This document shows, piece by piece, positions 2,617 through 60,974 of a DNA stretch of 64,000 bases. The notes beneath the pieces are model-generated. The model was not told the DNA's origin and did no database searches. It saw only the letters and a program-made list of their open reading frames with translations. The stretch is from a virus, in IMG/VR virus record IMGVR_UViG_3300008516_000159. One strand, given 5' to 3'. Made by a program: the position numbers and the translations under genes. Every line of letters begins with the position of its first letter. Position 1 is the stretch's first letter.

Positions 2617-2805
2617 CTATGTGTCAAAGCGCCTCCAACGCGAGCAACCCTCACTGTTAGGCGCTGTAGAGATTGCATAGTAGAAACAATGATACTCATC
2701 TTGATCATCATTTTTATAAAAGCAGTTGCTGCAGGTTTGATTTCCTAAAAGCAATTGCTTTGCAATCTTCTTCTTCATCGATGTGCTTATTTCGTATCTA
2801 TGCAT
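2617..2805 (-). CDS. AKxLL-CxxC microprotein
   Basis: KKKIAKQLLLGNQTCSNC...C...CSRW. Confidence 0.7.
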   Translation of the reverse strand: MHRYEISTSMKKKIAKQLLLGNQTCSNCFYKNDDQDEYHCFYYAISTAPNSEGCSRWRRFDT

Positions 2806-3368
2806 TCAACAACCCTTGCGTTGAAATTCAGAAACTCTAACCAACCAAACCTTTCTGCCTTGTCTCTGGAAATAACCAGGAACGGCATATATTTGGGCTC
2901 AAATGGCTTCTTGATTAAATGCATGTGAGCTTCCTTTAAGAGCTTGTTGCCCTTTTTGCGGTTACACTTCTTACATGCGGCAACCTGATTCTCCCATGCG
3001 TTAACGTGCGCAGGCCTTATTTTTGGCGATATTTCGTGCCAACGAGAAACAGGAATGACGTGGTCAACCGTTAACTCGTTGATTTGATAACGCTCGCCAC
3101 AGTACATACACTTCATATCATCACGATATATGATGTTTAGACGCGAGTAAACGACCTTGCGCTTTGGAATCTTGTTGAAGTCAAGCAACATGATTACGCG
3201 TGGCAAAGGTATCGACAGATACTGTGACCTGATAGGCTGGGCTTCATCTTCGCGTATTGCGCGCGACTTGCCCAATACCAACGAACAAACGGCTTCCCTG
3301 ACATTACAAACGTCAACCGGAACCATTCCACTGTTCAATGTTAAAACCGGTGCATATAGATTAACCAT
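2787..3368 (-). CDS. HNH endonuclease (McrA-like)
   Basis: CMYCG, LTVDHVIP, NQVAACKKCNRKKGN. Confidence 0.9.
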   Translation of the reverse strand: MVNLYAPVLTLNSGMVPVDVCNVREAVCSLVLGKSRAIREDEAQPIRSQYLSIPLPRVIMLLDFNKIPKRKVVYSRLNIIYRDDMKCMYCGERYQINELTVDHVIPVSRWHEISPKIRPAHVNAWENQVAACKKCNRKKGNKLLKEAHMHLIKKPFEPKYMPFLVISRDKAERFGWLEFLNFNARVVECIDTK

Positions 3369-3381
3369 TTACGCCTCCTAT

Positions 3382-3456
3382 TGGGCGGGGAGGGATTCGA
3401 ACCCTCAACATCCAGATTTTAAATCTGGCGCCTCTACCAAGTTGCGCTACTCGCCC
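3382..3456 (-). tRNA. tRNA-Leu(UAA), short variable loop
   Basis: CCAGA-TTTAAAA-TCTGG anticodon arm; full cloverleaf. Confidence 0.9.
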
Positions 3457-3666
3457 CTGTTCTTGTCTATCATATGATTCTTAAGGCGGCCGCCACTATT
3501 GCCGCCACAATCCACACTGCGATTAGTATAAAAAACATGATCTTCGCATTTTTTGGCTGGTTATAGTTTTCCTCTCCTTTTTTGAATTTCTTCACTTTAA
3601 AATCCCACCAGCTTTCCCAAACGTGCCATTTTCTCACAATACCCCCTCCTCATTACATTATCTTTG

Positions 3667-3743
3667 TACCCCGGGGAGGACTCGAACCTCCAGACAACCC
3701 ACGTTCTGAACGTAGTGGCTATACCCGATTCGCCTACCGGGGC
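3667..3743 (-). tRNA. tRNA-Leu(CAG)
   Basis: CTACG-TTCAGAA-CGTGG anticodon arm. Confidence 0.88.
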
Positions 3744-3748
3744 TAGTG

Positions 3749-3823
3749 TGCCCGCGAGAGGATTCGAACCTCCAACATCACGGTCCTAAGCCGTGCGCCT
3801 CTGCCAGGTTGCGCTACGCGGGC
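3749..3823 (-). tRNA. tRNA-Leu(UAG)
   Basis: CACGG-CTTAGGA-CCGTG anticodon arm. Confidence 0.9.
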
Positions 3824-4182
3824 TAATCTTTCAATATAAGCTTCGCAACTTCTTTACGATGCTCAGGAAGCACTTCTAAATCAGCGAAAGCTTTGATTAA
3901 TGTGTATATCCCCCTTGGTGTTATTTTCCACCAATTAGAGAGATAGTACGTTGCCCCTCCTCTAACCGAAGCATTTACTGGTCTGTGTTTTGTTATCTTC
4001 AATACCTTTTTCTTCTTCATTTCGTACAAATAACATCTGGTTTTAGAAGAACTATACGCCACACCTTCAAACAGAAAACAAGCCTGTGCCGTACGAAAGG
4101 TTTCTATTCCGAATTCCCCATACACTTCGCGCAAGCGCTCCATGTATTTGTATATTTCAACCCCATCTTTGTTTATAAACAC
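3823..4182 (-). CDS. Hypothetical protein with C-terminal AKxLL-like motif
   Basis: Ends RKEVAKLILKD; G of the TAG stop is tRNA nucleotide 1. Confidence 0.65.
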   Translation of the reverse strand: MFINKDGVEIYKYMERLREVYGEFGIETFRTAQACFLFEGVAYSSSKTRCYLYEMKKKKVLKITKHRPVNASVRGGATYYLSNWWKITPRGIYTLIKAFADLEVLPEHRKEVAKLILKD

Positions 4183-4448: not shown

Positions 4449-4449
4449 T

Positions 4450-4761
4450 TTAGACCTTATCAACCGCATCGGCGATTTTTTTATAATATTCCTGCATCTT
4501 TTCAAAAGATTCCTTGTCTAGATACTGACAGCTTAGAAAAGTCGGCATTCCGTTTATTGCCACAGGGCACGCCTTGTTTATGTATTCAAAGATCAAGAAA
4601 GGCTTATTTTTGTTAAATTGTTTTCGAGCCTTTTTGTCCATAAAAGCAAGAGGCATGAATATGTGATCTATGAAAGATTTATTCTCGCACTGCTTGTCGG
4701 TGAAAACCTCGCCCGAATAAATGTCAAGAGCGAGCTGTTTTAGTTCCTCGTTGCTTCTCAT
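4450..4761 (-). CDS. Hypothetical phage protein
   Basis: 103-aa ORF packed between adjacent genes. Confidence 0.6.
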   Translation of the reverse strand: MRSNEELKQLALDIYSGEVFTDKQCENKSFIDHIFMPLAFMDKKARKQFNKNKPFLIFEYINKACPVAINGMPTFLSCQYLDKESFEKMQEYYKKIADAVDKV

Positions 4762-4955
4762 TTTCTCACCTCTATTTGTTGATCTCTTTTATAAGAGACA
4801 CAACCTTTAAATCGATCTACATTAATTTTTAGGCCGCCTGCATTATTTATTGTACACCAGTTCGCGAACGCCGCGTAATATTTGCAAGTTGAACAGACAG
4901 AATGAACACTGTCACTTACCAATAAACGTTTGGCTTCTTGAGCTTTATGATTCAA
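4758..4955 (-). CDS. AKxLL-CxxC microprotein
   Basis: Probable TTG start at 4955 (the longer ORF overlaps a tRNA); KAQEAKRLL...CSTC...C...C. Confidence 0.65.
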   Translation of the reverse strand: MNHKAQEAKRLLVSDSVHSVCSTCKYYAAFANWCTINNAGGLKINVDRFKGCVSYKRDQQIEVRK

Positions 4956-4967
4956 TTTAATTCCTTT

Positions 4968-5041
4968 TGGGCCAGGAGGGAATCGAACCCCCAACTCCTT
5001 GATTAAAAGTCAAGTACGCTGCCTAGTTGCGTCACTGACCC
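4968..5041 (-). tRNA. tRNA-Lys(UUU)
   Basis: CTTGA-CTTTTAA-TCAAG anticodon arm. Confidence 0.9.
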
Positions 5042-6050: not shown

Positions 6051-6269
6051 TTAAGACATATTCACATAATGCTTGTATTTCGGAGGATGTTTTTTCTCCC
6101 AATCGAGGCAGCCAAATTTATCAGGTAGATCTATGATTTTAAAGCTATATAGACCGCACACAGGCTCATCTATATACTTTTGGCGTTCGCTACTTCTTAT
6201 GAACCAGTGACAGTCTACACAGACGTTACCGATCAGAAGTTGTTTGGCTTTTTCTGTTTTCGTTGTCAT
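6051..6269 (-). CDS. AKxLL-CxxC microprotein
   Basis: MTTKTEKAKQLLIGNVCVDC...C...CLDW. Confidence 0.7.
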   Translation of the reverse strand: MTTKTEKAKQLLIGNVCVDCHWFIRSSERQKYIDEPVCGLYSFKIIDLPDKFGCLDWEKKHPPKYKHYVNMS

Positions 6270-6412
6270 CACAATACGATGGTTCATAATATTTGCAAGC
6301 TGGAACAGTCTCTGGATCATATATGATCCCACCATCAACTTCACATAAGTGAAAATGATGTGGTGTTCCTGCGCATTTTAGACAAGTTATGCACGTCTTT
6401 TTATCGTTCATT

Positions 6413-7105: not shown

Positions 7106-7318
7106 TCAACGAGGCCGCCGCGCGTCGTTAAGCTCAACAGCACGCCAACGAGTAATCTTTCGCCAATGCTCACATGTTCTCACTAGTGGCAATCTTAGGT
7201 TTTTTGACTCAGGCCTAAACCTATAACATTTTCCCGTAGCATCAAACCAATAACAATTTTCACAAACCTTACCGATTAATAAGCTTTTAGCTCTTATCGC
7301 TTTATGAATTTTTCGCAT
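7106..7318 (-). CDS. AKxLL-CxxC microprotein
   Basis: KAIRAKSLLIGKVCENC...C...CEHW. Confidence 0.7.
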   Translation of the reverse strand: MRKIHKAIRAKSLLIGKVCENCYWFDATGKCYRFRPESKNLRLPLVRTCEHWRKITRWRAVELNDARRPR

Positions 7319-7512
7319 GTTCTTGTCAATGGCGTCATAACCTTAAGATTGTGACATTCTCCATCTAAGATTTTCAGCTTGCAACCGAAAGCCCTAATCA
7401 TTTCTTCTGCATCTGGCAATGTCTCAAATATCAACTGCTTCGGAAACACGCAGTTGTTGCATGTTTTGTCCGTCAAAATGGCCATGGCTGTTTGTTTTTT
7501 ATCTAACTTCAT
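7294..7512 (-). CDS. AKxLL-like CxxC microprotein (variant)
   Basis: KKQTAMAILTDKTCNNC...CEKF; start trimmed to avoid the tRNA. Confidence 0.6.
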   Translation of the reverse strand: MKLDKKQTAMAILTDKTCNNCVFPKQLIFETLPDAEEMIRAFGCKLKILDGECHNLKVMTPLTRTCEKFIKR

Positions 7513-7527
7513 TTCTATGTAAATCAT

Positions 7528-7599
7528 TAGGCCCTGAGGGAATTGAACCCCCGGCACCTAGATTAAGAGTCTAGTGTTCTTCCGCTGAACTAAGGGCCC
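7528..7599 (-). tRNA. tRNA-Lys(CUU)
   Basis: CTAGA-CTCTTAA-TCTAG. Confidence 0.9.
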
Positions 7600-8024
7600 G
7601 GTATAACTGAGTAATCTTCAGCCAAATGAACTCTCTGTTGTTGATTGTTCTTAGCTGGTTCTACTCTTAATGATATATTATCACCAGAAAAATCTACTAT
7701 AGGTATAAAATATAACCTTTTATTATTTGGACAATAAACGACAACCAAATCAATTTCATCTTTTCTGGCTGGTCTCCTCCGCTTTCCTTGGTAAGGTCCT
7801 GAACTACTTATATCAACAAGCAACGCTCCATTGGTTTTTTTCCCTTCGCGAATAGAAATATATTTTACTTGGACTCTTAAACACTTTCCGTTCTTATACG
7901 CAATAAAGTCAAATGGCAAATGCTCGCTTATTGTTGTAAAAATATAGTATCCACTTTCCGCAAAAGACAATTGAGCTTTGTAGACGGCCAAATCTCCTTT
8001 ATCTGCAGTAGGGTGTTTATTCAT
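7590..8024 (-). CDS. PD-(D/E)XK endonuclease (group I intron-associated-type, free-standing)
   Basis: KGDLA, PFDFIA, RVQVK; stop codon lies inside tRNA-Lys. Confidence 0.85.
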   Translation of the reverse strand: MNKHPTADKGDLAVYKAQLSFAESGYYIFTTISEHLPFDFIAYKNGKCLRVQVKYISIREGKKTNGALLVDISSSGPYQGKRRRPARKDEIDLVVVYCPNNKRLYFIPIVDFSGDNISLRVEPAKNNQQQRVHLAEDYSVIPGP

Positions 8025-8218
8025 TAAGAGCCCCTATTTTCAAAACGCTCACAATACTTTGGCATTTCGATTATTTCGCCAGTCTTGTCACAATAATATT
8101 TATTTAAAGCAAATGATACATTTCTCCATATGCAAGACTCGCAGTTTTCATTCTTGAGAATATGTTTTGCAACTTTAGACTTGTTCACTTTTACCTGTCC
8201 AAAATTCACACGTGCCAA
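8024..8218 (-). CDS. AKxLL-CxxC microprotein
   Basis: KSKVAKHILKNENCESC...CERF. Confidence 0.7.
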   Translation of the reverse strand: MARVNFGQVKVNKSKVAKHILKNENCESCIWRNVSFALNKYYCDKTGEIIEMPKYCERFENRGS

Positions 8219-8390
8219 ATGTAGGCCTCTGCTTCATATCGTGAGTGTGATTTTTTTCCGGCCAAGCGTAATGAGACTGATCTCTACACCAGCTTTTAAA
8301 AGAGATGCCTTCGTAGTCAAGACATTCCTGGCATTTATGGCCAGTTAATAAATGTTTGGCTATTTTTGCTATTTTTTTAATTGCTATCAC
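8175..8390 (-). CDS. AKxLL-CxxC microprotein
   Basis: KIAKIAKHLLTGHKCQEC...CEFW. Confidence 0.7.
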   Translation of the reverse strand: MIAIKKIAKIAKHLLTGHKCQECLDYEGISFKSWCRDQSHYAWPEKNHTHDMKQRPTFGTCEFWTGKSEQV

Positions 8391-9729: not shown

Positions 9730-9903
9730 CTATATCTCCATAGCCGATTCATCGATACAACTAGCACAGAGCCAATGTTTAGTATAATCACCATACATGT
9801 CGGCAGCATATGGATCTTCAGTGTATTCTGCGTTAGGATTGCCACACCTTTCGCAGGGTTTGGATAATAAAAGCTCTTTTGCTTTTTCGGCCTTTTGTTT
9901 CAC
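9730..9903 (-). CDS. AKxLL-CxxC microprotein (57 aa, not in ORF track)
   Basis: GTG start; VKQKAEKAKELLLSKPCERCGNPNA...EDPY...HWLCASC; paralog of the next two ORFs. Confidence 0.75.
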   Translation of the reverse strand: MKQKAEKAKELLLSKPCERCGNPNAEYTEDPYAADMYGDYTKHWLCASCIDESAMEI

Positions 9904-10127
9904 GTGTTAACCCCCTGTGATAACGCGAACCATTTTGAAAGATCTCTGTCTGTTGGAATTGCCACATCTAATTCTTCGAGACAATTGTAGCAAAGCCAAT
10001 GTTTATCATGGTTATCGAACATCTCAGCATCATACGGATCTTCAACGTATATTGCGTCAGCGTTGCCACACCTGTCACAAGGTTTAGATAACAAAAGCTC
10101 TTTTGCTTTTTTGGTCTTTTCTTTCAT
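9900..10127 (-). CDS. AKxLL-CxxC microprotein
   Basis: MKEKTKKAKELLLSKPCDRCGN...HWLCYNC. Confidence 0.8.
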   Translation of the reverse strand: MKEKTKKAKELLLSKPCDRCGNADAIYVEDPYDAEMFDNHDKHWLCYNCLEELDVAIPTDRDLSKWFALSQGVNT

Positions 10128-10138: not shown

Positions 10139-10300
10139 TTACGCGTCAACTGAAACACATTTATCACAAAGCCAATGTTTAGTGTGATAACCGTTGGCCA
10201 GAAGAAATGGATCTTCAACTTTCGTAGCGTTAGGGTTGCCACACCTTTCACACGGCTTGGATAATAAAAGCTCTTTTGCTTTTTCGGTTTTTTCTTTCAT
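10139..10300 (-). CDS. AKxLL-CxxC microprotein
   Basis: MKEKTEKAKELLLSKPCERCGN...HWLCDKC; start trimmed to avoid the tRNA. Confidence 0.78.
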   Translation of the reverse strand: MKEKTEKAKELLLSKPCERCGNPNATKVEDPFLLANGYHTKHWLCDKCVSVDA

Positions 10301-10415: not shown

Positions 10416-10643
10416 TCAGCATCTATTATTGGCTAGCACTATTTCAAGTCTACAGGCTCGACACACACTCAATATGGTACCGTCTTCTAATCGTTCCCAA
10501 CCAAAGTATTTACACATATACCTTCTTGGATAATAATGCCCACATATTTCACACTTGTATTTCCTTCTCCTCATTTTAGCGCACTCTTCACAACAGTACC
10601 TGGATAATAAAAAATCCTTTGCTTTTTTGGTCTTTTTCTTCAC
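10416..10643 (-). CDS. AKxLL-CxxC microprotein
   Basis: KTKKAKDFLLSRYCCEEC...CEICG...CRAC. Confidence 0.72.
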   Translation of the reverse strand: MKKKTKKAKDFLLSRYCCEECAKMRRRKYKCEICGHYYPRRYMCKYFGWERLEDGTILSVCRACRLEIVLANNRC

Positions 10644-12963: not shown

Positions 12964-13110
12964 TCAATATCTCATATACATATGCTTTTAATAATATAGA
13001 CGCCGCCCCGTTGTTACGAGTATATATATCAAGCTCCTTAACTTGACCCCGCGTTGCCTACCGAACCTGGGGCTGCGCGCCTATTGGCGATCAAGAAGGA
13101 TCGACCAATA

Positions 13111-13196
13111 CGGAAGGCCGGGGATTCGAACCCCGAAGCCACTTGCGCGACCAACAGATTAGCAATCTGTCCGACTACCAATTATCGCAGCCTTCC
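13111..13196 (-). tRNA. tRNA-Ser(GCU)
   Basis: ACAGA-TTGCTAA-TCTGT; long variable arm. Confidence 0.9.
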
Positions 13197-13600
13197 AAAA
13201 ATTCCTTATAAAAAGGCCTCTCGTTAGATTTCTTTTTTTTAGCTTCCAACACTCTTATAGAAAAATAATGCTCACAACTGCCGTCTAAGTGTTTTTTTGA
13301 AATATACAACACTTTATCTACATCTGGAACATATACTGCCCAACCATCTATTAAATCCATGTCTATAGCCACTTCTTTGCTATTTACAACATTGTAAAAA
13401 GGTATATGAATCAAACCTTCCCAGCCTTTTCTATTAACCGATCTATACTTCACTTGCAGTCTTACGGTCTTTGATCCTTTGACCGCAATCAGATCAACAG
13501 AGGAATAATCTCCGAATGGCAAGAAGATTTCGTAACCTCTATCGATTAAATCGTCAATTACTTTAGTTAAGCCTTTTACGCCCTTTTCGTTTGTGTTCAC
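13175..13600 (-). CDS. PD-(D/E)XK endonuclease (paralog of 7590..8024)
   Basis: KGVKG, VDLIA, RLQVKY; stop codon inside tRNA-Ser(GCU). Confidence 0.85.
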   Translation of the reverse strand: MNTNEKGVKGLTKVIDDLIDRGYEIFLPFGDYSSVDLIAVKGSKTVRLQVKYRSVNRKGWEGLIHIPFYNVVNSKEVAIDMDLIDGWAVYVPDVDKVLYISKKHLDGSCEHYFSIRVLEAKKKKSNERPFYKEFLEGCDNW

Positions 13601-13607: not shown

Positions 13608-14003
13608 TCATTTCAAAAGTCTTTTTGCTTTTAAACGCTTTTCGTCTTTCTCTTTTAGCATTGGAATATCGAGCCCGAATTGTTTGTTAAACAATCTCCG
13701 GCCGTCAGATGAATGAACCAATGTTAAGTTGCTATAAACACAACCGCCAACACCATTGGCTTTTCTGTGTATAACGCGAACATTAGTTTGAGGCCAGACA
13801 ATACCAGCACCATCTTTTTTAACGACGGTTTTCAAAGGTGTGATAACAGCAAGAGTATCTCCAACATCAAGTTCAATTCTCTCTAGCAAGCCAATGGCAC
13901 CAATGAGTCTTTCATTGCCATTTTCGTCAGGCGCGGATATAGTAAATCCAGAAATGTTACAGGGTTCTAAAAGTGGCCCAAACACGAGTTTTTTCGTCTT
14001 CAT
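13608..14003 (-). CDS. Hypothetical protein with C-terminal AKxLL motif
   Basis: Ends KRLKAKRLLK. Confidence 0.65.
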   Translation of the reverse strand: MKTKKLVFGPLLEPCNISGFTISAPDENGNERLIGAIGLLERIELDVGDTLAVITPLKTVVKKDGAGIVWPQTNVRVIHRKANGVGGCVYSNLTLVHSSDGRRLFNKQFGLDIPMLKEKDEKRLKAKRLLK

Positions 14004-16478: not shown

Positions 16479-16709
16479 TTACCATATCATTTCGGAAAGT
16501 AACCACTTTTCACATATTCTAGAGAACGGTATCACCACGCCATCTGGCCCGAATTTAATATCCCCCCTGCTGTTATGAGGGTCGCAATCTGACGGATACA
16601 TGCAACTTTTATCGTAATAATGACAGCTGTCGCACGATCTACCATATTGCAAAAGGAGCTTTGCACGTTCTATTTTTGTTCGACCAGGTATTGATACACA
16701 AGACATCAC
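16479..16709 (-). CDS. AKxLL-CxxC microprotein
   Basis: KIERAKLLLQYGRSCDSC...CEKW. Confidence 0.75.
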   Translation of the reverse strand: MMSCVSIPGRTKIERAKLLLQYGRSCDSCHYYDKSCMYPSDCDPHNSRGDIKFGPDGVVIPFSRICEKWLLSEMIW

Positions 16710-16993
16710 TCAAACCGCTTCGCCGCTTCTCTTTCAGCCTGAATAGAGGTAACTGCCAGTTCAGCAAGCGCCCATCTGGCACATACTCTCATTTCTGGTA
16801 TTTCGCCATGACGCGCCGACAAACCGCGATCTAAGCCGACCGTGCATTTTTCATTAGGACCATAAAAATCATAAGCCAATGATTCTTCGCAATGATGATT
16901 AAAATATTCACAGCTATCGCAAGATCTGCCGTATTTCAAAAGTAGCTTGCTGCGCACTATTTTTATTTGACTCTCTTCTGCTACGTAATGCAT
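16706..16993 (-). CDS. AKxLL-CxxC microprotein
   Basis: KIVRSKLLLKYGRSCDSC...CARW. Confidence 0.75.
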   Translation of the reverse strand: MHYVAEESQIKIVRSKLLLKYGRSCDSCEYFNHHCEESLAYDFYGPNEKCTVGLDRGLSARHGEIPEMRVCARWALAELAVTSIQAEREAAKRFE

Positions 16994-17004: not shown

Positions 17005-17271
17005 TTAATCAGCCTCTTCGTCATCTTCAAACGTTACTTCAGATATTTTTAGCTTAGCGAGCACCCAGCTGTCGCATGTTCTTGTTTCCGGTAAATCTAA
17101 GCCTCGCTCTGTGGTTAACATACACGCCTCGCTGAAGCCATAAAAACCATGATCCCGTGGCTCCTTGCAATTATAATCAAAGTGTTCGCAGCTATCGCAA
17201 GATTTGCCGTATTTCAAAAGCAGCTTAGTGCGCTCTGTTTTTATTTGACTCTCTTTTGGTACGTAATACAT
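17005..17271 (-). CDS. AKxLL-CxxC microprotein
   Basis: KTERTKLLLKYGKSCDSC...CDSW. Confidence 0.75.
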   Translation of the reverse strand: MYYVPKESQIKTERTKLLLKYGKSCDSCEHFDYNCKEPRDHGFYGFSEACMLTTERGLDLPETRTCDSWVLAKLKISEVTFEDDEEAD

Positions 17272-17474
17272 TCAGATAGTATCCAGTAACCGCACATCTT
17301 TTCTTTTGGCATATCGCCGAAAACACAATCTACGTAATCCTCTCCATCAAACGTTTTGAGCAAACAATAATAATTGACTTTAAAACGACCGCAACTTTCA
17401 CAAGCTCGTCCACATCTTAAAATTAATTTAGCTTGTTCTCTCTTTATTTCATTTTCATCTGTTCTGTAATACAT
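17241..17474 (-). CDS. AKxLL-CxxC microprotein
   Basis: KREQAKLILRCGRACESC...CGYW; start trimmed to avoid the tRNA. Confidence 0.72.
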   Translation of the reverse strand: MYYRTDENEIKREQAKLILRCGRACESCGRFKVNYYCLLKTFDGEDYVDCVFGDMPKEKMCGYWILSECITYQKRVK

Positions 17475-20357: not shown

Positions 20358-20555
20358 TTATTTCAAAGACCATTTATCACAGCCCCTGTTAAATATAACA
20401 TCGAGGACTAAATCTTTTTTCAAAAAACAATACTCATATACTCCAATTGGAGGACCGGCATCATCCTCTTTACAGTGCCGGCAATTACTGCATCTCTTTC
20501 CGTGCTTTAAAAGATCCTTGGCTGCATCCCTCTTCGCGTCTGACCTGCCAGTCAT
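20358..20555 (-). CDS. AKxLL-CxxC microprotein
   Basis: KRDAAKDLLKHGKRCSNC...CDKW. Confidence 0.72.
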   Translation of the reverse strand: MTGRSDAKRDAAKDLLKHGKRCSNCRHCKEDDAGPPIGVYEYCFLKKDLVLDVIFNRGCDKWSLK

Positions 20556-20697
20556 CACAATTCTTTCCTTTTTGCAGGTGCACAGTTGGTGTCGAATCGA
20601 AAAAACACATCCTAGCTCTTTGAACCACGCTAGCATACACACAATTACTGCATCCTCTTCCGTGCTTTAAAAGATCCTTGACTAATTCACGTTTCAT
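20485..20697 (-). CDS. AKxLL-CxxC microprotein
   Basis: MKRELVKDLLKHGRGCSNC...CDDW. Confidence 0.72.
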   Translation of the reverse strand: MKRELVKDLLKHGRGCSNCVYASVVQRARMCFFDSTPTVHLQKGKNCDDWQVRREEGCSQGSFKARKEMQ

Positions 20698-20900
20698 TGC
20701 CAGTATTTACATATCCCATCTACTGGAAACGCCATTGCGTATTTACCGGCATCCCCTTTTTCGTATCTACGATACTCAGAAGTGCAAAAAGCAATCGACA
20801 TACAAGTACGCCCGTCGGGGTTCAGAGCCATAAACTCACAACTCCGACACACTTTCCCGTATTTTAAAAGCCTCTTGGCTTTATTAGCAGACCGCTTCAT
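20694..20900 (-). CDS. AKxLL-CxxC microprotein
   Basis: SANKAKRLLKYGKVCRSC...CKYW. Confidence 0.75.
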   Translation of the reverse strand: MKRSANKAKRLLKYGKVCRSCEFMALNPDGRTCMSIAFCTSEYRRYEKGDAGKYAMAFPVDGICKYWQ

Positions 20901-21103
20901 TGCCAGTATTTACACACCCTCTCTTCTGGTAACGGCATAGTATCTATCAACATAAAACGGTACTTCTTCGTGAGCCTGAGTTCATGATCACAGCGATAAA
21001 AAGGCTCATCATTCACTGTGAAAGCGTGGCTATGAAACTCGCAACTCCGACACTCTTTCCCGTATCTTAAAAGATCCTTAGCTTTACTCACAGACTGTTT
21101 CAT
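20897..21103 (-). CDS. AKxLL-CxxC microprotein
   Basis: SVSKAKDLLRYGKECRSC...CKYW. Confidence 0.75.
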   Translation of the reverse strand: MKQSVSKAKDLLRYGKECRSCEFHSHAFTVNDEPFYRCDHELRLTKKYRFMLIDTMPLPEERVCKYWQ

Positions 21104-28919: not shown

Positions 28920-29132
28920 TTACCCCCATACAACATCAAACTTCCTTTTACCATCATCAAGTTGCCAATCTTTACAGTATGACAAATCGTTTATTATTAA
29001 AGACTCCAATGGTCCCTTGCCCTTGTCGACCAAAAGGAGACAATAGCCATTTGATGTCTTAAAATTACAAGTTCTGCAAAATTTGTTGGCCAATAATCTT
29101 TTAGCCAGCAAAAATTTCTTTTTCTTTCTCAT
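28920..29132 (-). CDS. AKxLL-CxxC microprotein
   Basis: KKFLLAKRLLANKFCRTC...CKDW. Confidence 0.72.
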   Translation of the reverse strand: MRKKKKFLLAKRLLANKFCRTCNFKTSNGYCLLLVDKGKGPLESLIINDLSYCKDWQLDDGKRKFDVVWG

Positions 29133-29403
29133 TCTGCCGCCACCAGGTGTGCCGTCTCGCGCGCCAGCGGGGAGATAGAGTTCGCGCGATGAACTGCTGG
29201 ATGCGGCCGCAGGCCGGTACCCATCGCTCACAATATTTGATCCTGCTAATATCACTACGCCTCACGGTATTTATCTTAAATACGGAACCATGCCCTGTTA
29301 TTCTTAACCAACAATAACCGTTTGATGACGCGTAATCGCAGTTTTGACATCCTCGATTAAGCAGAGCGCCCTTTGCCAGTACTTTCTTTTTCGATTTATT
29401 CAA
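29101..29403 (-). CDS. AKxLL-CxxC microprotein
   Basis: KKKVLAKGALLNRGCQNC...CERW. Confidence 0.68.
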   Translation of the reverse strand: MNKSKKKVLAKGALLNRGCQNCDYASSNGYCWLRITGHGSVFKINTVRRSDISRIKYCERWVPACGRIQQFIARTLSPRWRARRHTWWRQNEKEKEIFAG

Positions 29404-30083
29404 CTGACCCCTCTTGCGAAATCAATGGCCATTTGTTTGGCATCTTCCATGGTCTTGGCCTTCCACTCGCCGCGGCCCCACGCAGGATACGTAGTGAATA
29501 TATCATGATTTATTGTCCCACCATCATCTTGTACAGTTGTAAATGTCAACCGCATTCCTTTTTCATTAGTATATTTGTCCAGATGATCCAACTCATATTT
29601 GATATTGGTATCATCGTCGTCGGTATAAAAGTTAACAGTATCCTCAACGAACTCTTGTTTGTTGCGAGGAGTAAAGCCGCAACTGCCTTTTACAACCTTG
29701 CTGCCGATGGTGAATCCGTATATGGCTCTGTGCGACCAGCCATACCATTTATTTTCTTCTTCACAAAAACCAATCGAGCAAGGCCGCATAGTTTCATCTT
29801 CACCCTCTTTTAAAAGTCGCTTGGCTTTCACAGCTTTCGGCAGCTCTTTCCTTTGGATTTTTTCCGGCTTTATACCACGTTTGGCGCAAATATAATATCC
29901 AATTTTCTTGTCTCCAATATACCAACCGTCGGGCCAGGTAAAAGCCGTACACATATCAAAATCTTGACAGCCATACGTAGCGCCATAGACGGTGTAGTAT
30001 GCTAATTGATAACCATGGTTCTTGTACCTAATAACCTTGTTTATCTGTTTTACGTCTTTGCCGTACCTTTCTATATCTAACAT
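29400..30083 (-). CDS. Hypothetical phage protein with internal AKxLL motif
   Basis: KAVKAKRLLKEG precedes CSIGFCEEENKWYGWSHRAIYGF. Confidence 0.7.
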   Translation of the reverse strand: MLDIERYGKDVKQINKVIRYKNHGYQLAYYTVYGATYGCQDFDMCTAFTWPDGWYIGDKKIGYYICAKRGIKPEKIQRKELPKAVKAKRLLKEGEDETMRPCSIGFCEEENKWYGWSHRAIYGFTIGSKVVKGSCGFTPRNKQEFVEDTVNFYTDDDDTNIKYELDHLDKYTNEKGMRLTFTTVQDDGGTINHDIFTTYPAWGRGEWKAKTMEDAKQMAIDFARGVS

Positions 30084-33056: not shown

Positions 33057-33251
33057 TCATATTTTATCTTCCAAAAGATACTTAGCAGTAGCTTTTTTCC
33101 GGGCTCTCGCTTCAGCCGCAACATGAAGATCGTGATCTAAACCGGCTATTTCATCGCCCAAGTTGTCCCAAAAATAAAGAGGGTCCACCTCGGCCTCAAT
33201 AACATATTCCTCACCGGCATATTCAACTTCCATATAAACCTTTGCTTTCAT
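33057..33251 (-). CDS. Small protein with C-terminal AKxLL motif
   Basis: Ends RKKATAKYLLEDKI. Confidence 0.65.
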   Translation of the reverse strand: MKAKVYMEVEYAGEEYVIEAEVDPLYFWDNLGDEIAGLDHDLHVAAEARARKKATAKYLLEDKI

Positions 33252-37919: not shown

Positions 37920-38132
37920 TTACTCCACCGATTCAAACAGTTTTTTGCACATCTTGCTATTATAAACAGAAAGAGTTGAGTTAGAAGCTTGCGCGCCGCA
38001 CATATCTATAAGAAGCTGCGACTCGCGCCATCGACATATTGCGCAATTTGGCTTTGTTTTTCTGCGAGGCTTCTTACCGCTCAATAACACTTTAGCGGCC
38101 GCCCTTTTGATTTCTTTACTTTTCACGGTCAT
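37920..38132 (-). CDS. AKxLL-CxxC microprotein
   Basis: EIKRAAAKVLLSG...CAIC...CKKLF. Confidence 0.68.
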   Translation of the reverse strand: MTVKSKEIKRAAAKVLLSGKKPRRKTKPNCAICRWRESQLLIDMCGAQASNSTLSVYNSKMCKKLFESVE

Positions 38133-38418
38133 AGAACCCTTCTGTATATTCGGCCGCGCGCCTCAACGCTACAGATTTTCCGCGCTGCAGCCGTTCGTTT
38201 TCAGGTTTGTTTTTATAGTCGCCGTTTAATATGCCTTCGTCTATCGCAGATTTCCATTTATAAAATATGCGTGATAAATCAGACGCGTTTACATAAACGT
38301 CTTTGTCTCGAATCAAAGTACGAACACCAACAAAAGGCCTGTTGTTTTCTTCGGCTTTCTTTTCTTCTTCTTTTAATAATACTTTCGCTGCCTTTTTCTT
38401 AAGCTCGCGGTCCTTCAT
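38116..38418 (-). CDS. Small protein with N-terminal AKxLL motif
   Basis: ELKKKAAKVLLKEEE. Confidence 0.62.
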   Translation of the reverse strand: MKDRELKKKAAKVLLKEEEKKAEENNRPFVGVRTLIRDKDVYVNASDLSRIFYKWKSAIDEGILNGDYKNKPENERLQRGKSVALRRAAEYTEGFYDREK

Positions 38419-39265
38419 TTTCCCTCTTTGAGTTGTATATTTTATAAACTATTCTCTGTTGATTCGGAGAAATATAACCTTTTTTGTTGAGCTGTTCGTA
38501 GACTGATTTAACAAAGTCAGAAGGGTCATGAGCCATTAGAAAGGATAACACCTGAGGAGCTTTTTCTTTCATGATGAGAGACCTGGCATATTCTTCTTGT
38601 TTGTCAGAAATCCTGCCATTCCTGATGAATCTGTCCCGGATATCCCTGATTATATAGTTGCTTCCTGAATACCTGATTAGCCACTTGTATTTTTCGTTCT
38701 GCTTGTCCAATTGTTCCTGGATTCTTTTCGATCTCTCGGCGACTTGCTTGGCAAAGTCCTGAGCTCTTTCAAGTTCTTTGTCAAGTCCAAGATCCAGAAT
38801 ATCGTTGATTTGTTGTTTAGAAAGGATGGCCTTGTTTATTGCAACATCGCGCAACAGATCCTTTGCTTGTTCGCGCATGAAATATTTGATGGTCAACTGT
38901 CGCTTATCTTCTATTGAGAACTTTTCGTAAGATTCTTTATCGATATCAGATCTCATTTCTTTGCGGGCTATCAGGACGGTTTTTCGTATCCTCTTGAGAA
39001 GACCTAGAGCTAAATCGATGTCAACGCCCCTCCCTTGAAAATGGTGAATACACTCAGAACCCACATCGAGCTGCCTATGTGTCTTAAGGTTTTCTATGGT
39101 GAATTGGTATACACAATGCTGATGTCCGCAGAGTTCACAATTGAATGGATAATAACTGGTTTTTATTAGTTTGAACTCATCGGTGGGTGAAGAGGAAATG
39201 TTAGCCAAGCTGATTTCTATTTTTGTTTGAAATGAGCTTGATTTGTATTCTTTATAAAGATCCAT
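38399..39265 (-). CDS. Zinc-finger hypothetical protein
   Basis: CELCGH...VGSECI; C-terminal ISDKQ and ISPNQ repeats. Confidence 0.65.
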   Translation of the reverse strand: MDLYKEYKSSSFQTKIEISLANISSSPTDEFKLIKTSYYPFNCELCGHQHCVYQFTIENLKTHRQLDVGSECIHHFQGRGVDIDLALGLLKRIRKTVLIARKEMRSDIDKESYEKFSIEDKRQLTIKYFMREQAKDLLRDVAINKAILSKQQINDILDLGLDKELERAQDFAKQVAERSKRIQEQLDKQNEKYKWLIRYSGSNYIIRDIRDRFIRNGRISDKQEEYARSLIMKEKAPQVLSFLMAHDPSDFVKSVYEQLNKKGYISPNQQRIVYKIYNSKRENEGPRA

Positions 39266-41539: not shown

Positions 41540-41563
41540 TTTTAAACCCTTTCTGCCTCAATT

Positions 41564-41881: not shown

Positions 41882-41896
41882 TTTACTACTCCTTAT

Positions 41897-47310: not shown

Positions 47311-47643
47311 GTGTCAGATGATATATTAAACGCCTTACAAACATCCTTGACTGAGATGCGAGCTCAGTACCGCAAGATCCGCGGGAGACCAGAGGCCGCA
47401 GAAGTCAAGCTTAAAATACGAGAGCTCGAAAAACACTTTGAAACGATTCTTCTGTCGGATATGAAGCGCTTGGGCAAGAATACAGAATTAATCGAGAACC
47501 TGAACCTTTTGATTAAAGAAACAAAGCTTGCTGTTGATAAAATGAAAAAGGTCGTAGATAGAGTGGAAAAAGTGGCAAATGTAATTGATAAGATAAATGA
47601 TGTACTGAAAATTGCCGCAGACGTAGCCAGACAGGTTTTATGA
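47311..47643 (+). CDS. Coiled-coil hypothetical protein
   Basis: GTG start after GGAGG, directly after the lipoprotein stop. Confidence 0.65.
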   Translation: MSDDILNALQTSLTEMRAQYRKIRGRPEAAEVKLKIRELEKHFETILLSDMKRLGKNTELIENLNLLIKETKLAVDKMKKVVDRVEKVANVIDKINDVLKIAADVARQVL

Positions 47644-47952
47644 TATATCTAACATTTCAAATAAGGCTTCCAAGTGATCTTCTCTGACACTTCCGTTGAA
47701 TAATGTTGTATCCTCACCGTGATCGAACAAAGTAATTATAATAGACCGATGGTGTTCGCGCCAGTCGTCCTCATTGGCAGGTCCAGCATCCCATATTTGA
47801 TAATACCATTCGGAATTTTTAGGGCTAGTGAACCACCAAGTATCAGAATCCTTGGATTCTTCTTTAAACCCTCTTTTCTTTAAAAACGATGTGAACCAAT
47901 ATTCGTGGTCGTCTTTTAGGTAGGCTTTTGCTTTTCCGACTTTATCTTCCAT
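47638..47952 (-). CDS. Small protein with N-terminal AKxLL-like motif
   Basis: MEDKVGKAKAYLKDD. Confidence 0.6.
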   Translation of the reverse strand: MEDKVGKAKAYLKDDHEYWFTSFLKKRGFKEESKDSDTWWFTSPKNSEWYYQIWDAGPANEDDWREHHRSIIITLFDHGEDTTLFNGSVREDHLEALFEMLDIS

Positions 47953-52010: not shown

Positions 52011-52316
52011 TCATTTTAGGTTCCTTCTGAGTAATAGCTTGGCCACCTTTGCTTTGTATTTATCACTCCTCTCGTCTATCTCCACCATTGAACTACCCTT
52101 TGTGGCGAACCTGTCGAGGTCTTTAGGTGTAAAGCGAACTATACCATTTGAATATGCAGGCGTCGAATCTTGGGGAAAGAACTCAAGAAAGTATATCGGG
52201 CCGTCGTTATTCCAGAGGGCAGGCCCATTCTCGACAGCTCTGCAGATCACTATCCATCTTTCTTTTGTAGAGTTCACGAACTCGTAATACTTACCGACGC
52301 TCATTTTTGATATCAT
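52011..52316 (-). CDS. Small protein with C-terminal AKxLL motif
   Basis: KAKVAKLLLRRNLK. Confidence 0.65.
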   Translation of the reverse strand: MISKMSVGKYYEFVNSTKERWIVICRAVENGPALWNNDGPIYFLEFFPQDSTPAYSNGIVRFTPKDLDRFATKGSSMVEIDERSDKYKAKVAKLLLRRNLK

Positions 52317-52557
52317 TGTTTTTTACCAATAAAAGAAACTTGGCCGCTTCTGTTTTGCTTGCTTTTTTATAACCGCGTTTGAGTGAATGTTGTTGTTCTT
52401 CGTTCAAAGACAAACTTACTGTATCAGTAAGCTCTGCTGTTTCGTTATATCTATGCAATGTTGCACAATCTTCATCACGAAAAATGGCTATGTATTTAAA
52501 CCAAAACACCGCGGTCTTACTCGATCCTGGCTTTCGGATATATAAATCAAAGTCCAT
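52291..52557 (-). CDS. Small protein with C-terminal AKxLL motif
   Basis: KTEAAKFLLLVK. Confidence 0.65.
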   Translation of the reverse strand: MDFDLYIRKPGSSKTAVFWFKYIAIFRDEDCATLHRYNETAELTDTVSLSLNEEQQHSLKRGYKKASKTEAAKFLLLVKNNDIKNERR

Positions 52558-52814: not shown

Positions 52815-53099
52815 TCAGAAATACTCTATATCTACTTTTTCCTTGTGCTTGTCAAAATCATCTTGAAAGCTTTCTGCGGCTGGTTCATTAGCAAAATGAG
52901 TTAGAACTTCTATTCCGCAGACAAGACACTTAAACATATCGGCGTGCCAAATTTTATAGTCCTTGTCGTTTTTTAATAGCTCTTTGGCGACCTTGGTTTT
53001 GTTGCCATCAAATATATTCTTTTTTAGTTGATGAACAACGACGCCATTCTTAAGTGGCAACATTTCCCTGTGACATTTAACGCAAACCGGTCTTTTCAT
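52815..53099 (-). CDS. Zinc-ribbon protein with inserted AKxLL motif
   Basis: CVKC...KTKVAKELLKND...CLVCG. Confidence 0.65.
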   Translation of the reverse strand: MKRPVCVKCHREMLPLKNGVVVHQLKKNIFDGNKTKVAKELLKNDKDYKIWHADMFKCLVCGIEVLTHFANEPAAESFQDDFDKHKEKVDIEYF

Positions 53100-54635: not shown

Positions 54636-54887
54636 TTATTCTTCGTCGTAATAGTTCCTCTTAATCATCCTCTTAAATTCTTCGGAGCCTGCAAAATTTG
54701 TCATACTCTGATATACCCTTCTGTGATAATCGTCGCCATCGAACGCTGGGCCGTCTACTGTCCATCTTTTACAGCTATTTGGATAGCTCGTAAACTCAAA
54801 CATTTGACACGCCGCACGAAAATAACAACTCTCGCAACTCTGCAATAAGAGTGACTTCGCTTTAGACGATTTTGATAAGCTCTTCAT
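54636..54887 (-). CDS. AKxLL-CxxC microprotein
   Basis: KSSKAKSLLLQSCESC...CKRW. Confidence 0.72.
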   Translation of the reverse strand: MKSLSKSSKAKSLLLQSCESCYFRAACQMFEFTSYPNSCKRWTVDGPAFDGDDYHRRVYQSMTNFAGSEEFKRMIKRNYYDEE

Positions 54888-57692: not shown

Positions 57693-58293
57693 TGTAATTG
57701 CCCTTTAAATGAGTTTTTCTCCATTTTCAAAGAAAAGATCACCATGCTCGTTGAAATGGAGGTTAGCTTGATCCTCTATTTTTATAACCTTTAATTGCAA
57801 TCGCCTCTCTTTTGCATTATCCGCATAATAAGCAACAAAATATTCTTTGTCAAATGTAAAATCTGCGCCCGAGCTCAACAGCGCCGCGACAAGGTACTGT
57901 ATCTTGTCCTTGTCTTTATTGAAACTGTCAGCTATGACGACAGGTTTTTCTTGCGCTTCGGCTTCAAATACTTCCTTACCAACAACACTTTTGTAAGCAT
58001 CATCCCTAAACCAGAATCCGGCAAAGATACTCTTGAGCTTTTTTATTTCTTCTTGAAGCGCAACATTATTATTCAGCCTGAAATTACCTGTAATCATGAA
58101 ACGCCAGCCATAATTGCTGTCGTCTTCTCTTTCTAGTATAAGTCTAAACCGACTATACTTCTTTTCAAAGAAATCTTTGCCTTCTTCGGCCCAGCCGTTG
58201 CCCAGGAGATAGTCTTTTATTTCTTCGTCTGATTTGAGCTTATATAGGCTTGTCTCTGCACATTCTGACATGACTTTCTCCATGCGATTATCT

Positions 58294-58560
58294 TTACGAC
58301 GGCCAGCCTCCTCGTAGCAAGAACTTTGCTTTTTCTTTTTTCGGCATTGGTGTCATGGGGTTGTTTTTCAAATAAGATTTTAGCTCGGGTTTGTTTTGAA
58401 AAATAATCAAGCCGCCCAGCGCCACATCTATTTTTCTACCCCACGTGTTATACTTTTGGAACACATATTTCGCATACATTTTACTATAGCCCATATATTG
58501 CCAAAACCCTGGGCCGCGGTACAAGTAAAATTGCCCTGTTATTAGCTCTCTGAATTTCAT
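58294..58560 (-). CDS. Small protein with C-terminal AKxLL motif
   Basis: KKEKAKFLLRGG. Confidence 0.65.
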   Translation of the reverse strand: MKFRELITGQFYLYRGPGFWQYMGYSKMYAKYVFQKYNTWGRKIDVALGGLIIFQNKPELKSYLKNNPMTPMPKKEKAKFLLRGGWPS

Positions 58561-58580
58561 CTCTTCTATATATGTAATAT

Positions 58581-58865
58581 TCAGTTAACGTATTTGTTGT
58601 TTGTAAGAAAAGCCTTCGCTACCTCTTTTTTTGTCGCTTTCCTTATTATGCCACTTTCCCAATGTTCCCGCAGAGCTGTTCCTTCCAACTCATAAGTCAG
58701 CGCAATTTGCGGGTTATCTGTCGGATGGAATCGCAAGCCGCCATCTTTAATGGTAATAGAGTGGCACGATTCACCCTGCGCAAATCTTAAAATGTAGTAA
58801 CTATCCAGGTGCCACGTTATTGGCTTCAGCTTACGCCGCGAGGATTTTTGAGACGCCTTGTTCAT
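58581..58865 (-). CDS. Small protein with C-terminal AKxLL-like motif
   Basis: KKEVAKAFLTN. Confidence 0.55.
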   Translation of the reverse strand: MNKASQKSSRRKLKPITWHLDSYYILRFAQGESCHSITIKDGGLRFHPTDNPQIALTYELEGTALREHWESGIIRKATKKEVAKAFLTNNKYVN

Positions 58866-60711
58866 CTTTATATATCATCATTGAGTTATTAAAATATGCT
58901 TTGAAGTTGTCTTTGTGTGATATGACATATACGGAGTTGCCGCGCTCTTTCAAGTCATCAATAATCTTTAACAACGCGGTGATTCCATTTTCATCCAGGT
59001 TTCTGTCAAGGACCTCGTCCATGAATATCATATTTATATCGTTGCCGAGATTGACCTTGACTAAATCAAACAACGAAAAGGCAATAGCAAGATTAACCCT
59101 CTGCTCTTCACCGCCCGACAATTGAGCCAGGCTCACATCATGACCATTCTTAGATATTCTATGATCCATTTCTCTATTCAAAGAAAAATCGATTTCTTCA
59201 TTAAAGAAGACACTCAAATAATGATTTATTCTGGAATTGATGAAGTCAATAACCTTGTTTATGAGGAAGGATCTAACTGTGTTTTCGCCTTTGGAAAAGG
59301 CGTGTATCCAAAAGTTAACGTGCTTTATATCATCCTGCAGATTGTCCAGTTCTTTCTGAAGATCGCGTACCGTGTTCTTCGCAGTCTTGATCTGAATTTT
59401 TATATTATTAATGTATTCCATATCTATGATGTTCTGGCGCTGTTCTGTCAATGTCCTTGTTTGCCCGGCTAATTCCCCGATTTGCTCCTTGACGTGCTCA
59501 AGCTCCTCGAGCGTCATTTTCGGTTTAAGAAACTTTATAGCGCCTATCTTGACATCCAACTTATCTGCGTCTTCTTTGTACTGAGCCCCATATTTCGAAG
59601 CAGCTTCCAATCCTTCTTCCAAGGTGCCCAATCCGGAGTCAAGCCTGTCTATTTCTTTTTTCATGCGGCCTACTAATTCTCGCCTCTCGTTGATATATTT
59701 ATCCATTAATTCACGATTGACCACATTACCACAAGTGGGGCAAGTGTTAGGATTCTCTTTGGCGGTAATTATTTCGGCGTTGGCTTTGTCGACGGCTTCA
59801 CCGTCTCTCCTAAGAGCGCTGTTTTTTTCTTTTATCTGTTTTTTCTGAGGACCTATTTTTTCGGCTTCATTGTCTTCTTTTATGCGAAGCTCATCTCTGG
59901 CTTTTACAAGTTTGTCTTTGCGTTTCTTGAAAGAATCATTTTTTCTATGCTTTTCTTTTTCTGAAGCTATGTCCACTTTTTGGAGCTTGTCCAACTCTTT
60001 TTTGATATCAGTTATGTCGTGGGACAGTTTTTTAAATTTGATCTTACATGACGTGAAATAATCTTGTACGGTTTGAGTTAGGTTTTCAGCAAGCTCTCTC
60101 TTGCCTTTTTGATCATGATAGTATTCATCATATTCGCTTTGAGCGTTGGTTTGTTCATTCTTAAGAAGCTTTTCATATACACTTAGGTTATCTACCTGCA
60201 ACACATTCTCGACTATCTCTTTGCGTTTCGCAGTAGAGGCGTCCGTAAAGCTGAATATCCTATCCTGAGAAAACATCACAGAAGAGATAAATGATCTGAA
60301 ATTGATTTTGATTAGATCGTTTACCCTGTCTTGAGTGTCATTCATATTGGCGAGAGATTTATCATTACCGTCGACTTTGAGTATAAGTTTGTTTTTGAGC
60401 CTCTTGCCGCCTATCTTTCTCCATCTTGTTATCTGGACATGTTTAGGACCAATGGTGAATTCCAAATTCACCATACAGTTTCCGCCCGCTATATTATTAA
60501 CAACCTCATCGGCAGCCAACCCTTTTGTGGTCTTGCCATAAATAGCCCAAACGATGGCATTAAAGATGGTGGTTTTACCGGCACCATTACTGCCGCCTTC
60601 TTGAAGATTTTGGCCTAAAACAAGAATTATGTCGTTATCGACAAAACGAATAAACTGCTCATCCTCGCCAAAAGAAAGGAAGTTCCTAATACGCATTTGA
60701 CGAAATTTCAA
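58831..60711 (-). CDS. SbcC/Rad50-like ATPase (T4 gp46-like)
   Basis: GSNGAGKT, coiled coil with CPTC zinc hook, LSGGE, FMDE. Confidence 0.95.
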   Translation of the reverse strand: MKFRQMRIRNFLSFGEDEQFIRFVDNDIILVLGQNLQEGGSNGAGKTTIFNAIVWAIYGKTTKGLAADEVVNNIAGGNCMVNLEFTIGPKHVQITRWRKIGGKRLKNKLILKVDGNDKSLANMNDTQDRVNDLIKINFRSFISSVMFSQDRIFSFTDASTAKRKEIVENVLQVDNLSVYEKLLKNEQTNAQSEYDEYYHDQKGKRELAENLTQTVQDYFTSCKIKFKKLSHDITDIKKELDKLQKVDIASEKEKHRKNDSFKKRKDKLVKARDELRIKEDNEAEKIGPQKKQIKEKNSALRRDGEAVDKANAEIITAKENPNTCPTCGNVVNRELMDKYINERRELVGRMKKEIDRLDSGLGTLEEGLEAASKYGAQYKEDADKLDVKIGAIKFLKPKMTLEELEHVKEQIGELAGQTRTLTEQRQNIIDMEYINNIKIQIKTAKNTVRDLQKELDNLQDDIKHVNFWIHAFSKGENTVRSFLINKVIDFINSRINHYLSVFFNEEIDFSLNREMDHRISKNGHDVSLAQLSGGEEQRVNLAIAFSLFDLVKVNLGNDINMIFMDEVLDRNLDENGITALLKIIDDLKERGNSVYVISHKDNFKAYFNNSMMIYKDEQGVSKILAA

Positions 60712-60974
60712 TTGCTGCTCCTATTATATCCGTCCTGAATATACGTGATGCCTGGGCCCGGACCGCTATAATTATCGTTCCACATTTGGCACCAAATAGC
60801 TTTTGTGTCGCTTATTTTGAGGTACCTTGTTTTGTTATATTCACACACGCAGGTATGATACCCGTGATCCGAACGCTCTTCCCATTTCAAATACTTACAC
60901 GAAACGCATTCAATATCATCCTTGAGCAAAGCCTTGGCTTTAGCTAGCTTAAGCTCTTTGCGTGAGATACTCAT
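60708..60974 (-). CDS. AKxLL-CxxC microprotein
   Basis: KLAKAKALLKDDIECVSC...CQMW; sits between the gp47-like and gp46-like genes. Confidence 0.7.
   Translation of the reverse strand: MSISRKELKLAKAKALLKDDIECVSCKYLKWEERSDHGYHTCVCEYNKTRYLKISDTKAIWCQMWNDNYSGPGPGITYIQDGYNRSSN

Follow-up and report, generated by a model that had tools for sequence, protein, structure and literature searches.

The 64,000-nucleotide stretch of viral DNA analysed here (IMG/VR record IMGVR_UViG_3300008516_000159, referred to below as the window) encodes some 35 proteins that carry the same short motif, Ala-Lys-x-Leu-Leu (AKxLL), at a frequency far above chance. About two thirds of these carriers belong to a family of cysteine-containing miniproteins, which we refer to as Cys4, and the remainder are mutually dissimilar. 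On balance, we lean towards reading AKxLL as a portable docking or recognition helix that is read by one putative partner, co-evolving with the phage lineage. An earlier note on this DNA, made from the sequence alone, had drawn attention to the motif on about 40 proteins and proposed that it is portable; the recurrence stands with the lower number, and every individual instance that the note listed was found in the reading frame to which it had been assigned. Portability is likewise supported by the dissimilarity of the carriers, the insertion of the motif into a homolog of Tad6, its bias towards protein termini, its recurrence in independent phages and flanks that are specific to a genome but common to its unrelated carriers. 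Neither the motif nor the Cys4 family was found described in the literature that we searched.

Recurrence of the motif on dissimilar proteins

The 114 minus-strand open reading frames (ORFs) of the window, 15,980 residues in total, contain 21 copies of AKxLL, compared with 0.48 +/- 0.72 copies (maximum 3) in 500 residue shuffles. This is an enrichment of about 40-fold over composition-matched sequences, the comparison that the earlier note had suggested. Patterns in which the same residues are reordered (KAxLL, LLxAK etc.) occur 0-2 times, and the three frames of the coding strand hold 28 copies of AKxLL versus 1 on the other strand. Chance or composition can be ruled out as the source of the motif by the shuffles, by the permuted patterns and by reversed sequences, which gave no matches of at least 10 bits to the scoring matrix described below. 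The codons used at the motif include all four for alanine, both for lysine and several for leucine, and such free variation indicates that selection acts on the protein and that the motif is not a DNA repeat. A DNA-level repeat or recombination scar is ruled out by this codon variation together with the spacing of genes after C-terminal copies and the conserved tail of an ortholog, both of which are given below. Two further DNA-level explanations were rejected: the C-terminal copies are not caused by overlap with Shine-Dalgarno sequences, since the purine-rich stretch is positioned 3' of the motif, and the promoter-like motif CATATATA, with 18 sites on the coding strand, shows no preference for carriers. 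The fuller consensus is K/E-x-x-[IVK]-A-K-x-L-L-x-[GND], with six consecutive positions around the A-K pair all conserved.

To examine carriers outside the Cys4 family, the 115 window proteins that do not belong to it were scanned with a scoring matrix built from 106 family members, none of which came from the window. The scan returned 11 matches of at least 10 bits, where 0.53 were expected (300 shuffles, maximum 3). One additional carrier, the protein at 13608, ends one residue past the motif and therefore could not be scored; its addition brings the total to 12. The motif lies at most 12 residues from the C-terminus in 7 of these 12 proteins (null 0.127, binomial p = 2e-4), is N-terminal in one and is internal in four. 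Below, all carrier genes of the window are on the minus strand, and the single position that follows a gene's coordinates is that of the Ala codon of its motif.

The C-terminal carriers are proteins of 119 residues (3823..4182; 3846; motif 2 residues from the C-terminus), 131 residues (13608..14003; 13628; 1 residue), 64 residues (33057..33251; 33086; 4 residues), 101 residues (52011..52316; 52043; 5 residues), 88 residues (52291..52557; 52344; 12 residues), again 88 residues (58294..58560; 58329; 6 residues) and 94 residues (58581..58865; variant AK-x-F-L, 7 residues). The earlier note had counted about 13 such proteins; these 7 are firm, and the weaker candidates at 35059, 36659 and 52547 fall below the threshold. 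Even at E values up to 10, phmmer comparisons among the C-terminal carriers recover only the motif itself, which rejects hidden homology as an explanation and leaves the non-family carriers with nothing detectable in common but AKxLL. The next gene or transfer RNA (tRNA) gene begins 0-21 nucleotides after each of the C-terminal carriers, so that there is no room for a decayed remnant of a Cys4 domain. A single ortholog was found for the protein at 3823; it is 82% identical and keeps the A, K and L residues in its tail. For the protein at 13608, no ortholog was found outside its own phage.

The N-terminal carrier outside the family is a 100-residue protein without the cysteines (38116..38418; 38388), and a second such protein, of 104 residues (47638..47952), has a weaker N-terminal variant, AK-x-Y-L, that scores 8.9 bits. 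One of the internal copies falls between the two CxxC pairs of a 94-residue zinc-ribbon-like protein (52815..53099; 52988), while those in proteins of 288 residues (38399..39265; 38866) and 265 residues (1713..2510; 2372) may be chance matches. Pfam and PHROGs contain no known family for these carriers, apart from the Tad6 homolog.

The Tad6 homolog (29400..30083; 29825) carries the motif at residues 87-91. It matches PF25188 with E = 2e-41 and 141.8 bits, well above the cut-off of 27, with residues 19-227 aligned to profile positions 3-145 of 145, the protein being longer than the model. Tad6 is an inhibitor of type I Thoeris defence that binds ThsB and blocks its active site via a loop (review PMC13728456), and from this homology the window protein is predicted to block ThsB as well. 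It differs from most Tad6 homologs in possessing an insertion with the AKxLL helix, of about 28 residues here and about 25-35 in other homologs, located directly before a conserved C-x4-C...W-x-G-W-S-H block. We found 580 homologs; of 120 that were aligned, 25 have the insertion and 95 do not. Exact AKxLL is present in 18 of the 25 insertions and near variants in the rest, with differing linker residues. In a quick tree computed minus the insertion columns (two short rows left out), the insertion state changes only about 3 times, which indicates that the insertion is old and has been retained. In a model with a predicted local distance difference test score (pLDDT) of 92, the insert forms a helix at residues 83-93 with a score of about 82. 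Linkers of lower confidence flank it, the one after the helix scoring about 68, whereas the body of the protein reaches at least 96; this fits a tethered, exposed helix. A fold search of the PDB with this model gave no informative match.

The helix in other huge phages

The earlier note had also suggested a comparison with the proteomes of related phages, and the same pattern recurs in independent genomes of huge phages. Related loci were located via a back-translated DNA pattern, and one genome of 388 kb (G001) was read whole. G001 contains 48 copies of AKxLL, compared with 3.4 +/- 1.8 expected, and 43 matrix matches, compared with 2.4 expected. Of its 37 copies on non-Cys proteins, 13 are N-terminal, typically with Ala at residue 7, 18 lie at most 12 residues from the C-terminus and 6 are internal; the corresponding null zones are 15% for the N-terminus and 7% for the C-terminus. 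The carriers make up about 6% of the genes in G001, and include seven paralogs with MORN_2 repeats and a Tad6-like protein that has the insert. From a 732-kb contig (L011), a piece of 20.8 kb holds 10 copies of AKxLL: they are found on Cys4 genes, in the Tad6 insert, at the N-terminus of non-Cys paralogs arranged in tandem and at the N-terminus of one further protein. A 4.5-kb contig (L008) combines a Cys4 gene with an N-terminal non-Cys carrier and a C-terminal carrier. Two further loci (L012 and L013) follow the same pattern. As negative controls, a 735-kb phage that does not have the Cys4 family shows motif matches at background only. Three contigs that encode Tad6 with the insert have 5-10 matches per 20 kb, and two contigs that encode Tad6 without it have none in 20 kb each.

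The flanks of the motif differ between genomes. The six residues upstream are basic in the window phage (net +1.4) and acidic in G001 (net -0.8; p = 3e-5), a difference that is also found for C-terminal carriers alone (p = 0.005). The residue after the Leu pair is K, R or L in the window phage and L in G001. Within each genome this flavour is the same for Cys4 and non-Cys carriers, and the overall content of Lys, Asp and Glu is similar in the two phages. Acidic or neutral flanks prevail in G001 and in the majority of metagenomic members. With a co-evolving partner, unrelated carriers would be expected to change in concert in this way, which is not expected of a purely structural helix or of a generic binder of membranes or nucleic acids.

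The Cys4 family and its setting in the window

There are 22 Cys4 carriers in the window, slightly fewer than the roughly 24 proteins with an N-terminal motif before a CxxC domain in the earlier note. Of these, 21 align as one family, 16 of them clustering by BLAST alone, and one has a decayed motif. The earlier note's claim that the flanking sequences lack homology, and that the carriers do not form a single domain family, therefore fails for two thirds of them and holds for the remaining third. Family members have an N-terminal helix, K-x3-AK-x-LL, followed after 3-6 residues by CxxC, a variable loop, Cys, a second variable loop and P-x3-C-x2-W. Alignments of the CxxC, C and C-x2-W elements together with the N-terminal AKxLL helix place these proteins in a new, unnamed family for which no Pfam or PHROG model matches. 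From the cysteine pattern alone, the miniproteins are presumably zinc-binding.

A profile of the family retrieved 120 matches at E < 1e-3 among 1.8 billion representative proteins, nearly all of them from other metagenomes and with an identical consensus. An alignment of 119 sequences shows no variation at the K, the second L or three of the Cys, and the A, the first L, the fourth Cys and the W are at least 90% conserved, so that conservation of the helix matches that of the cysteines. The family is widespread among metagenomic huge phages, with 17 matches in G001 (98% complete) and 42, mostly in tandem arrays, in a 114-kb fragment (G004). An AlphaFold model of one window member (7106..7318) consists of an N-terminal helix and then short hairpins, with a pLDDT of 73.7. 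Fold searches with this model in the PDB (Foldseek), PDB representatives (VIA-align) and the ESM Atlas (by shape) gave no informative match, and searching the ESM Atlas with sequence features yielded nothing usable. Co-folding of two copies gave no support for self-association, a result that is not evidence either way.

The members with a regular motif are encoded at 2617..2805 (2763), 4758..4994 (4934; the start is uncertain because the gene overlaps a tRNA-Lys gene), 6051..6344 (6248), 7106..7318 (7291; the member that was folded), 8024..8218 (8170), 8175..8390 (8360), 16479..16709 (16664), 17241..17474 (17432), 20358..20564 (20522), 20694..20900 (20879), 20897..21103 (21082), 28920..29141 (29105), 54636..54887 (54860) and 60708..60974 (60938). 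Three neighbours at 9730..9903 (9882), 9900..10127 (10106) and 10139..10300 (10279) form a subfamily with two CxxC pairs. Variant motifs are found at 10416..10643 (a Cys-rich miniprotein with AK-x-F-L), 16706..16993 (S-K-x-L-L) and 17005..17271 (T-K-x-L-L), and the protein at 37920..38132 (38096) is a Cys-containing miniprotein with an N-terminal motif and a longer spacer to CxxC. The decayed motif, A-M-A-I-L, belongs to the protein at 7294..7557, which has CxxC and C-x2-F in the family register as judged by eye, unaligned. The gene at 60708..60974 lies between a gp47-like gene (60949-61974) and a gp46-like gene (58831-60711) and overlaps both, and a related phage contig (L001) has its ortholog in the same place, so that the arrangement is conserved. 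Two C-terminal carriers come after the gp46-like gene.

Some family members in other phages have additional features. Five complete Cys4 miniproteins (P0022, P0106, P0076, P0059 and P0061, from L008, L009 and L013) have C-terminal pieces that match PF07068, the model of the T4 major capsid protein, over positions 6-46 or about 128-194. It is possible that these pieces are capsid-fragment decoys or bind the capsid; recognition of capsid proteins by the TIR sensors of Thoeris has been reported in recent papers. A dense array in G004 (C1:65069-71440, L055) has about 15-25 Cys4 genes in tandem within 6 kb, and upstream of it are a radical S-adenosylmethionine (radical-SAM)/SPASM-like gene (63473-64468), a RelA/SpoT-like fragment (64506-65060) and two non-Cys carriers of the helix.

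The window itself is gene-dense, with nearly all genes on the minus strand and 37 tRNA genes, all between 2.5 and 33 kb. Its T4-type markers are UvsX, the gp46/47-like genes and a protein of the T4 baseplate; immediately past its end come genes for sheath, tube and a gp15-like protein. Window proteins are also encoded on contigs of up to 191 kb. The nearest phage record for UvsX is a 735-kb uncultured phage at 29.5% identity, and tblastn found no cultured-phage relatives. According to Pfam, three minus-strand genes carry cargo that is unusual for a phage, namely a fusion of a response-regulator receiver and an HD domain (681-1670), a family-5 solute-binding protein with a hydrophobic N-terminal leader (24408-26246) and a beta-eliminating lyase (44170-45486). 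A fourth gene with such unusual cargo, at 31464-32282 (minus strand), is methionine aminopeptidase-like by eye. About 8 small proteins in a row at 39577-43671 (minus strand) have N-termini that resemble signal peptides or lipoproteins; these include the paralog pairs 39577/41150 and 39967/40545, and none carries the AKxLL motif. At 18880-18954 (minus strand), in ORF-poor surroundings, ARAGORN calls a tRNA-like gene whose anticodon has four bases (tgag) and to which it assigns no amino acid. A PDDEXK_5 endonuclease-like gene at 13175-13600 (minus strand) adjoins tRNA-Ser (13110-13197); it is found in L002, L003, L006 and L007 and is absent between the same flanking genes in L004 and L005, a pattern suggestive of a mobile gene with presence/absence polymorphism. 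Another gene similar to it is located at 7590-8024.

Candidate partners and competing explanations

If AKxLL is a recognition helix, then it is one that phages of an uncultured, huge T4-like clade carry at either extreme end of a protein or within an inserted, exposed loop, and one reader per phage lineage would co-evolve with it. The variable bodies, such as the Cys4 loops, the MORN repeats and Tad6, may be diversified binders or anti-defence modules, which the helix would link to a single partner. In our order of preference, candidates for this partner are the prohead interior, a Clp-type AAA+ protease or its adaptor, and a modifying enzyme. A broader proposal, which we make only tentatively, is one of proteome-wide addressing, in which each genome places a helix of about 10 residues, at either end or in a loop, on 35-45 of its proteins and would so tie large, rapidly diversifying arsenals of binders to a single lineage-specific machine, either for co-injection from the capsid or for feeding the carriers and their host targets to a protease. 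Several points weigh against the recognition-helix reading. Our analysis identified no partner for the helix; the Cys4 helix could be purely structural, for example by packing on a small zinc domain, and confidence in the model of that domain is moderate (pLDDT 73.7). In addition, the comparison between Tad6 inserts and the density of carriers covers five contigs, a small sample, and the 10-kb tail-gene module adjoining the window has no carriers.

The first candidate, a capsid-loading tag, supposes that the helix docks its carriers to the prohead scaffold, core or portal, so that they are packaged and injected with the DNA as in T4. The phage is indeed T4-like, as judged from UvsX, the gp46/47-like proteins, the T4 baseplate protein, sheath and tube, and one carrier is a homolog of an anti-defence protein. 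In T4, the diverse internal proteins, which act against host defences, have nothing in common but a capsid targeting sequence (CTS), which is portable to foreign cargo (PMC3012670). AKxLL resembles the CTS of IPI, IPII, IPIII and Alt in being a short conserved peptide on diverse small proteins of a T4-type phage, but it differs in sequence, and is present on 35-45 proteins per genome where the T4 tag is on a handful. The CTS is always N-terminal, and the prohead protease, which in T4 cleaves at L/I-x-E, removes it. In contrast, AKxLL may be N-terminal, C-terminal or internal, with half of the copies in the latter two positions; in the window 7 of 12 non-family copies are C-terminal and 4 internal, and 18 of 37 are C-terminal in G001. 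Depending on the genome, L, K, R, E or Q occupies position +5 after the Ala; Glu follows the Leu pair only in some carriers, so that there is no conserved L-x-E cleavage site of the T4 type. The motif is found in G001 at residue 7 of the large terminase and behind the catalytic domain of the prohead protease, but these matches are missing from the homologs in G005 and G004 and, with about 2-3 chance matches expected in a proteome of this size, may be due to chance. These two proteins were thus rejected as conserved carriers, and the link to the capsid is by analogy only. We consider capsid loading rather unlikely as the role of the helix. In G005 (C1:77383 onward, L050), the large terminase ORF is 994 residues long, with a stretch resembling an intein-type insertion soon after residue 100.

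Somewhat less probable, in our view, is that the helix has no common partner at all and is a structural element of a mobile mini-module, such as a cap for small domains, that was spread by domain shuffling and kept for folding. In Cys4 proteins the helix is part of a domain of 50-60 residues and is probably needed for its hydrophobic core, and it also adjoins Cys pairs in Tad6 and in the protein at 52815. Such a role leaves unexplained why the same sequence requirements apply to non-Cys proteins of different families, why copies are placed 1-12 residues from the C-terminus and why the flavour of the flanks switches between genomes in all classes of carriers together.

A degron or adaptor-docking signal for a Clp-type AAA+ protease, which would remove early proteins on time or destroy host defence proteins, is an unlikely function. 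Recognition signals of ClpX comprise N-terminal and C-terminal classes, and AKxLL resembles these signals, as well as the adaptor tails that bind the ClpX zinc-binding domain, in its presence at either terminus of unrelated proteins; its strict terminal preference is what degrons that engage a pore would need. Furthermore, phage ClpP genes adjoin carriers in two lineages. At 16716-17695 in L062, a ClpP gene is directly followed by a C-terminal carrier, and at C1:62973-64939 in G001 a ClpP gene has a Cys4 gene on one side and a DnaJ-like gene and a C-terminal carrier on the other. The J-domain protein at this G001 locus has 345 residues. However, since carriers are about 6% of genes, adjacency to ClpP is expected fairly often by chance and is only suggestive. 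A second ClpP gene in G001 has no carriers nearby, the window and the four incomplete genomes yielded no ClpP, and the copy in Tad6 is internal, which differs from the terminal signals of AAA+ proteases. We know of no sequence match between AKxLL and the known classes of ClpX motifs. Likenesses between the motif and the ribosomal L7/L12 helix (A-K-D-L-V) or the N-termini of ClpX zinc domains extend over no more than 3-4 residues.

Still more doubtful is a leader-like recognition sequence for a modifying enzyme, such as a radical-SAM/SPASM maturase that acts on the Cys-rich bodies or an enzyme that acts on the invariant Lys. This would account for the conservation of six consecutive positions all round the helix with an invariant Lys, and tandem paralogs with a constant leader and a variable Cys body are reminiscent of multi-precursor systems for ribosomally synthesized and post-translationally modified peptides (RiPPs). 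A radical-SAM/SPASM-like gene of about 290-330 residues is found beside Cys4 arrays in G004, L011, L012 and L062, and partially matches maturases of sactipeptides and ranthipeptides. Nevertheless, all matches to named maturases are far below the NCBIfam cut-offs, leaving the gene generic; huge phages commonly encode radical-SAM proteins, and with Cys4 genes packed so densely, little can be read into adjacency. A Pfam scan of the 10 larger window proteins found no radical-SAM domain. In addition, the conserved Cys spacing, Pro and Trp suggest a folded zinc domain and not a RiPP core, and the MORN and Tad6 carriers are full-size folded proteins. A C39 peptidase, the reader of bacteriocin-type leaders with a double glycine, was rejected as a conserved reader, since PF13529 is absent from G001-G005; it is present in L013 and L062. 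Finally, an amphipathic helix that targets membranes, as those at the ends of MinD or FtsA do, would fit a motif that is terminal, amphipathic and Lys/Arg-flanked in the window, but is highly improbable given that the basic character is not conserved where flanks are acidic or neutral, that only about four residues are hydrophobic, and that strict conservation of Ala and Lys, with Asn at +2 in metagenomic members, is atypical of such helices.

Short linear motifs by which many proteins are directed to a single partner are familiar from eukaryotes and their viruses, and the T4 CTS is one of few such motifs described in phages. The ankyrin/PRANC F-box proteins of poxviruses, for example, are viral paralog families that combine a constant docking motif with a variable binder. 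The AKxLL carriers are similar in that expanded, fast-diverging binder modules are joined to a short constant motif, and differ in that this motif is about 10 residues long and in that the phages infect bacteria and therefore encounter no ubiquitin system. If the broader proposal of proteome-wide addressing is correct, AKxLL would be a phage counterpart of these eukaryotic-virus adaptor families and a ready-made portable tag. The identity of its reader would give a functional context to dozens of uncharacterised proteins per genome, including the very large Cys4 family, would provide a small portable tag for engineering, and could show how huge phages use their anti-defence arsenals.

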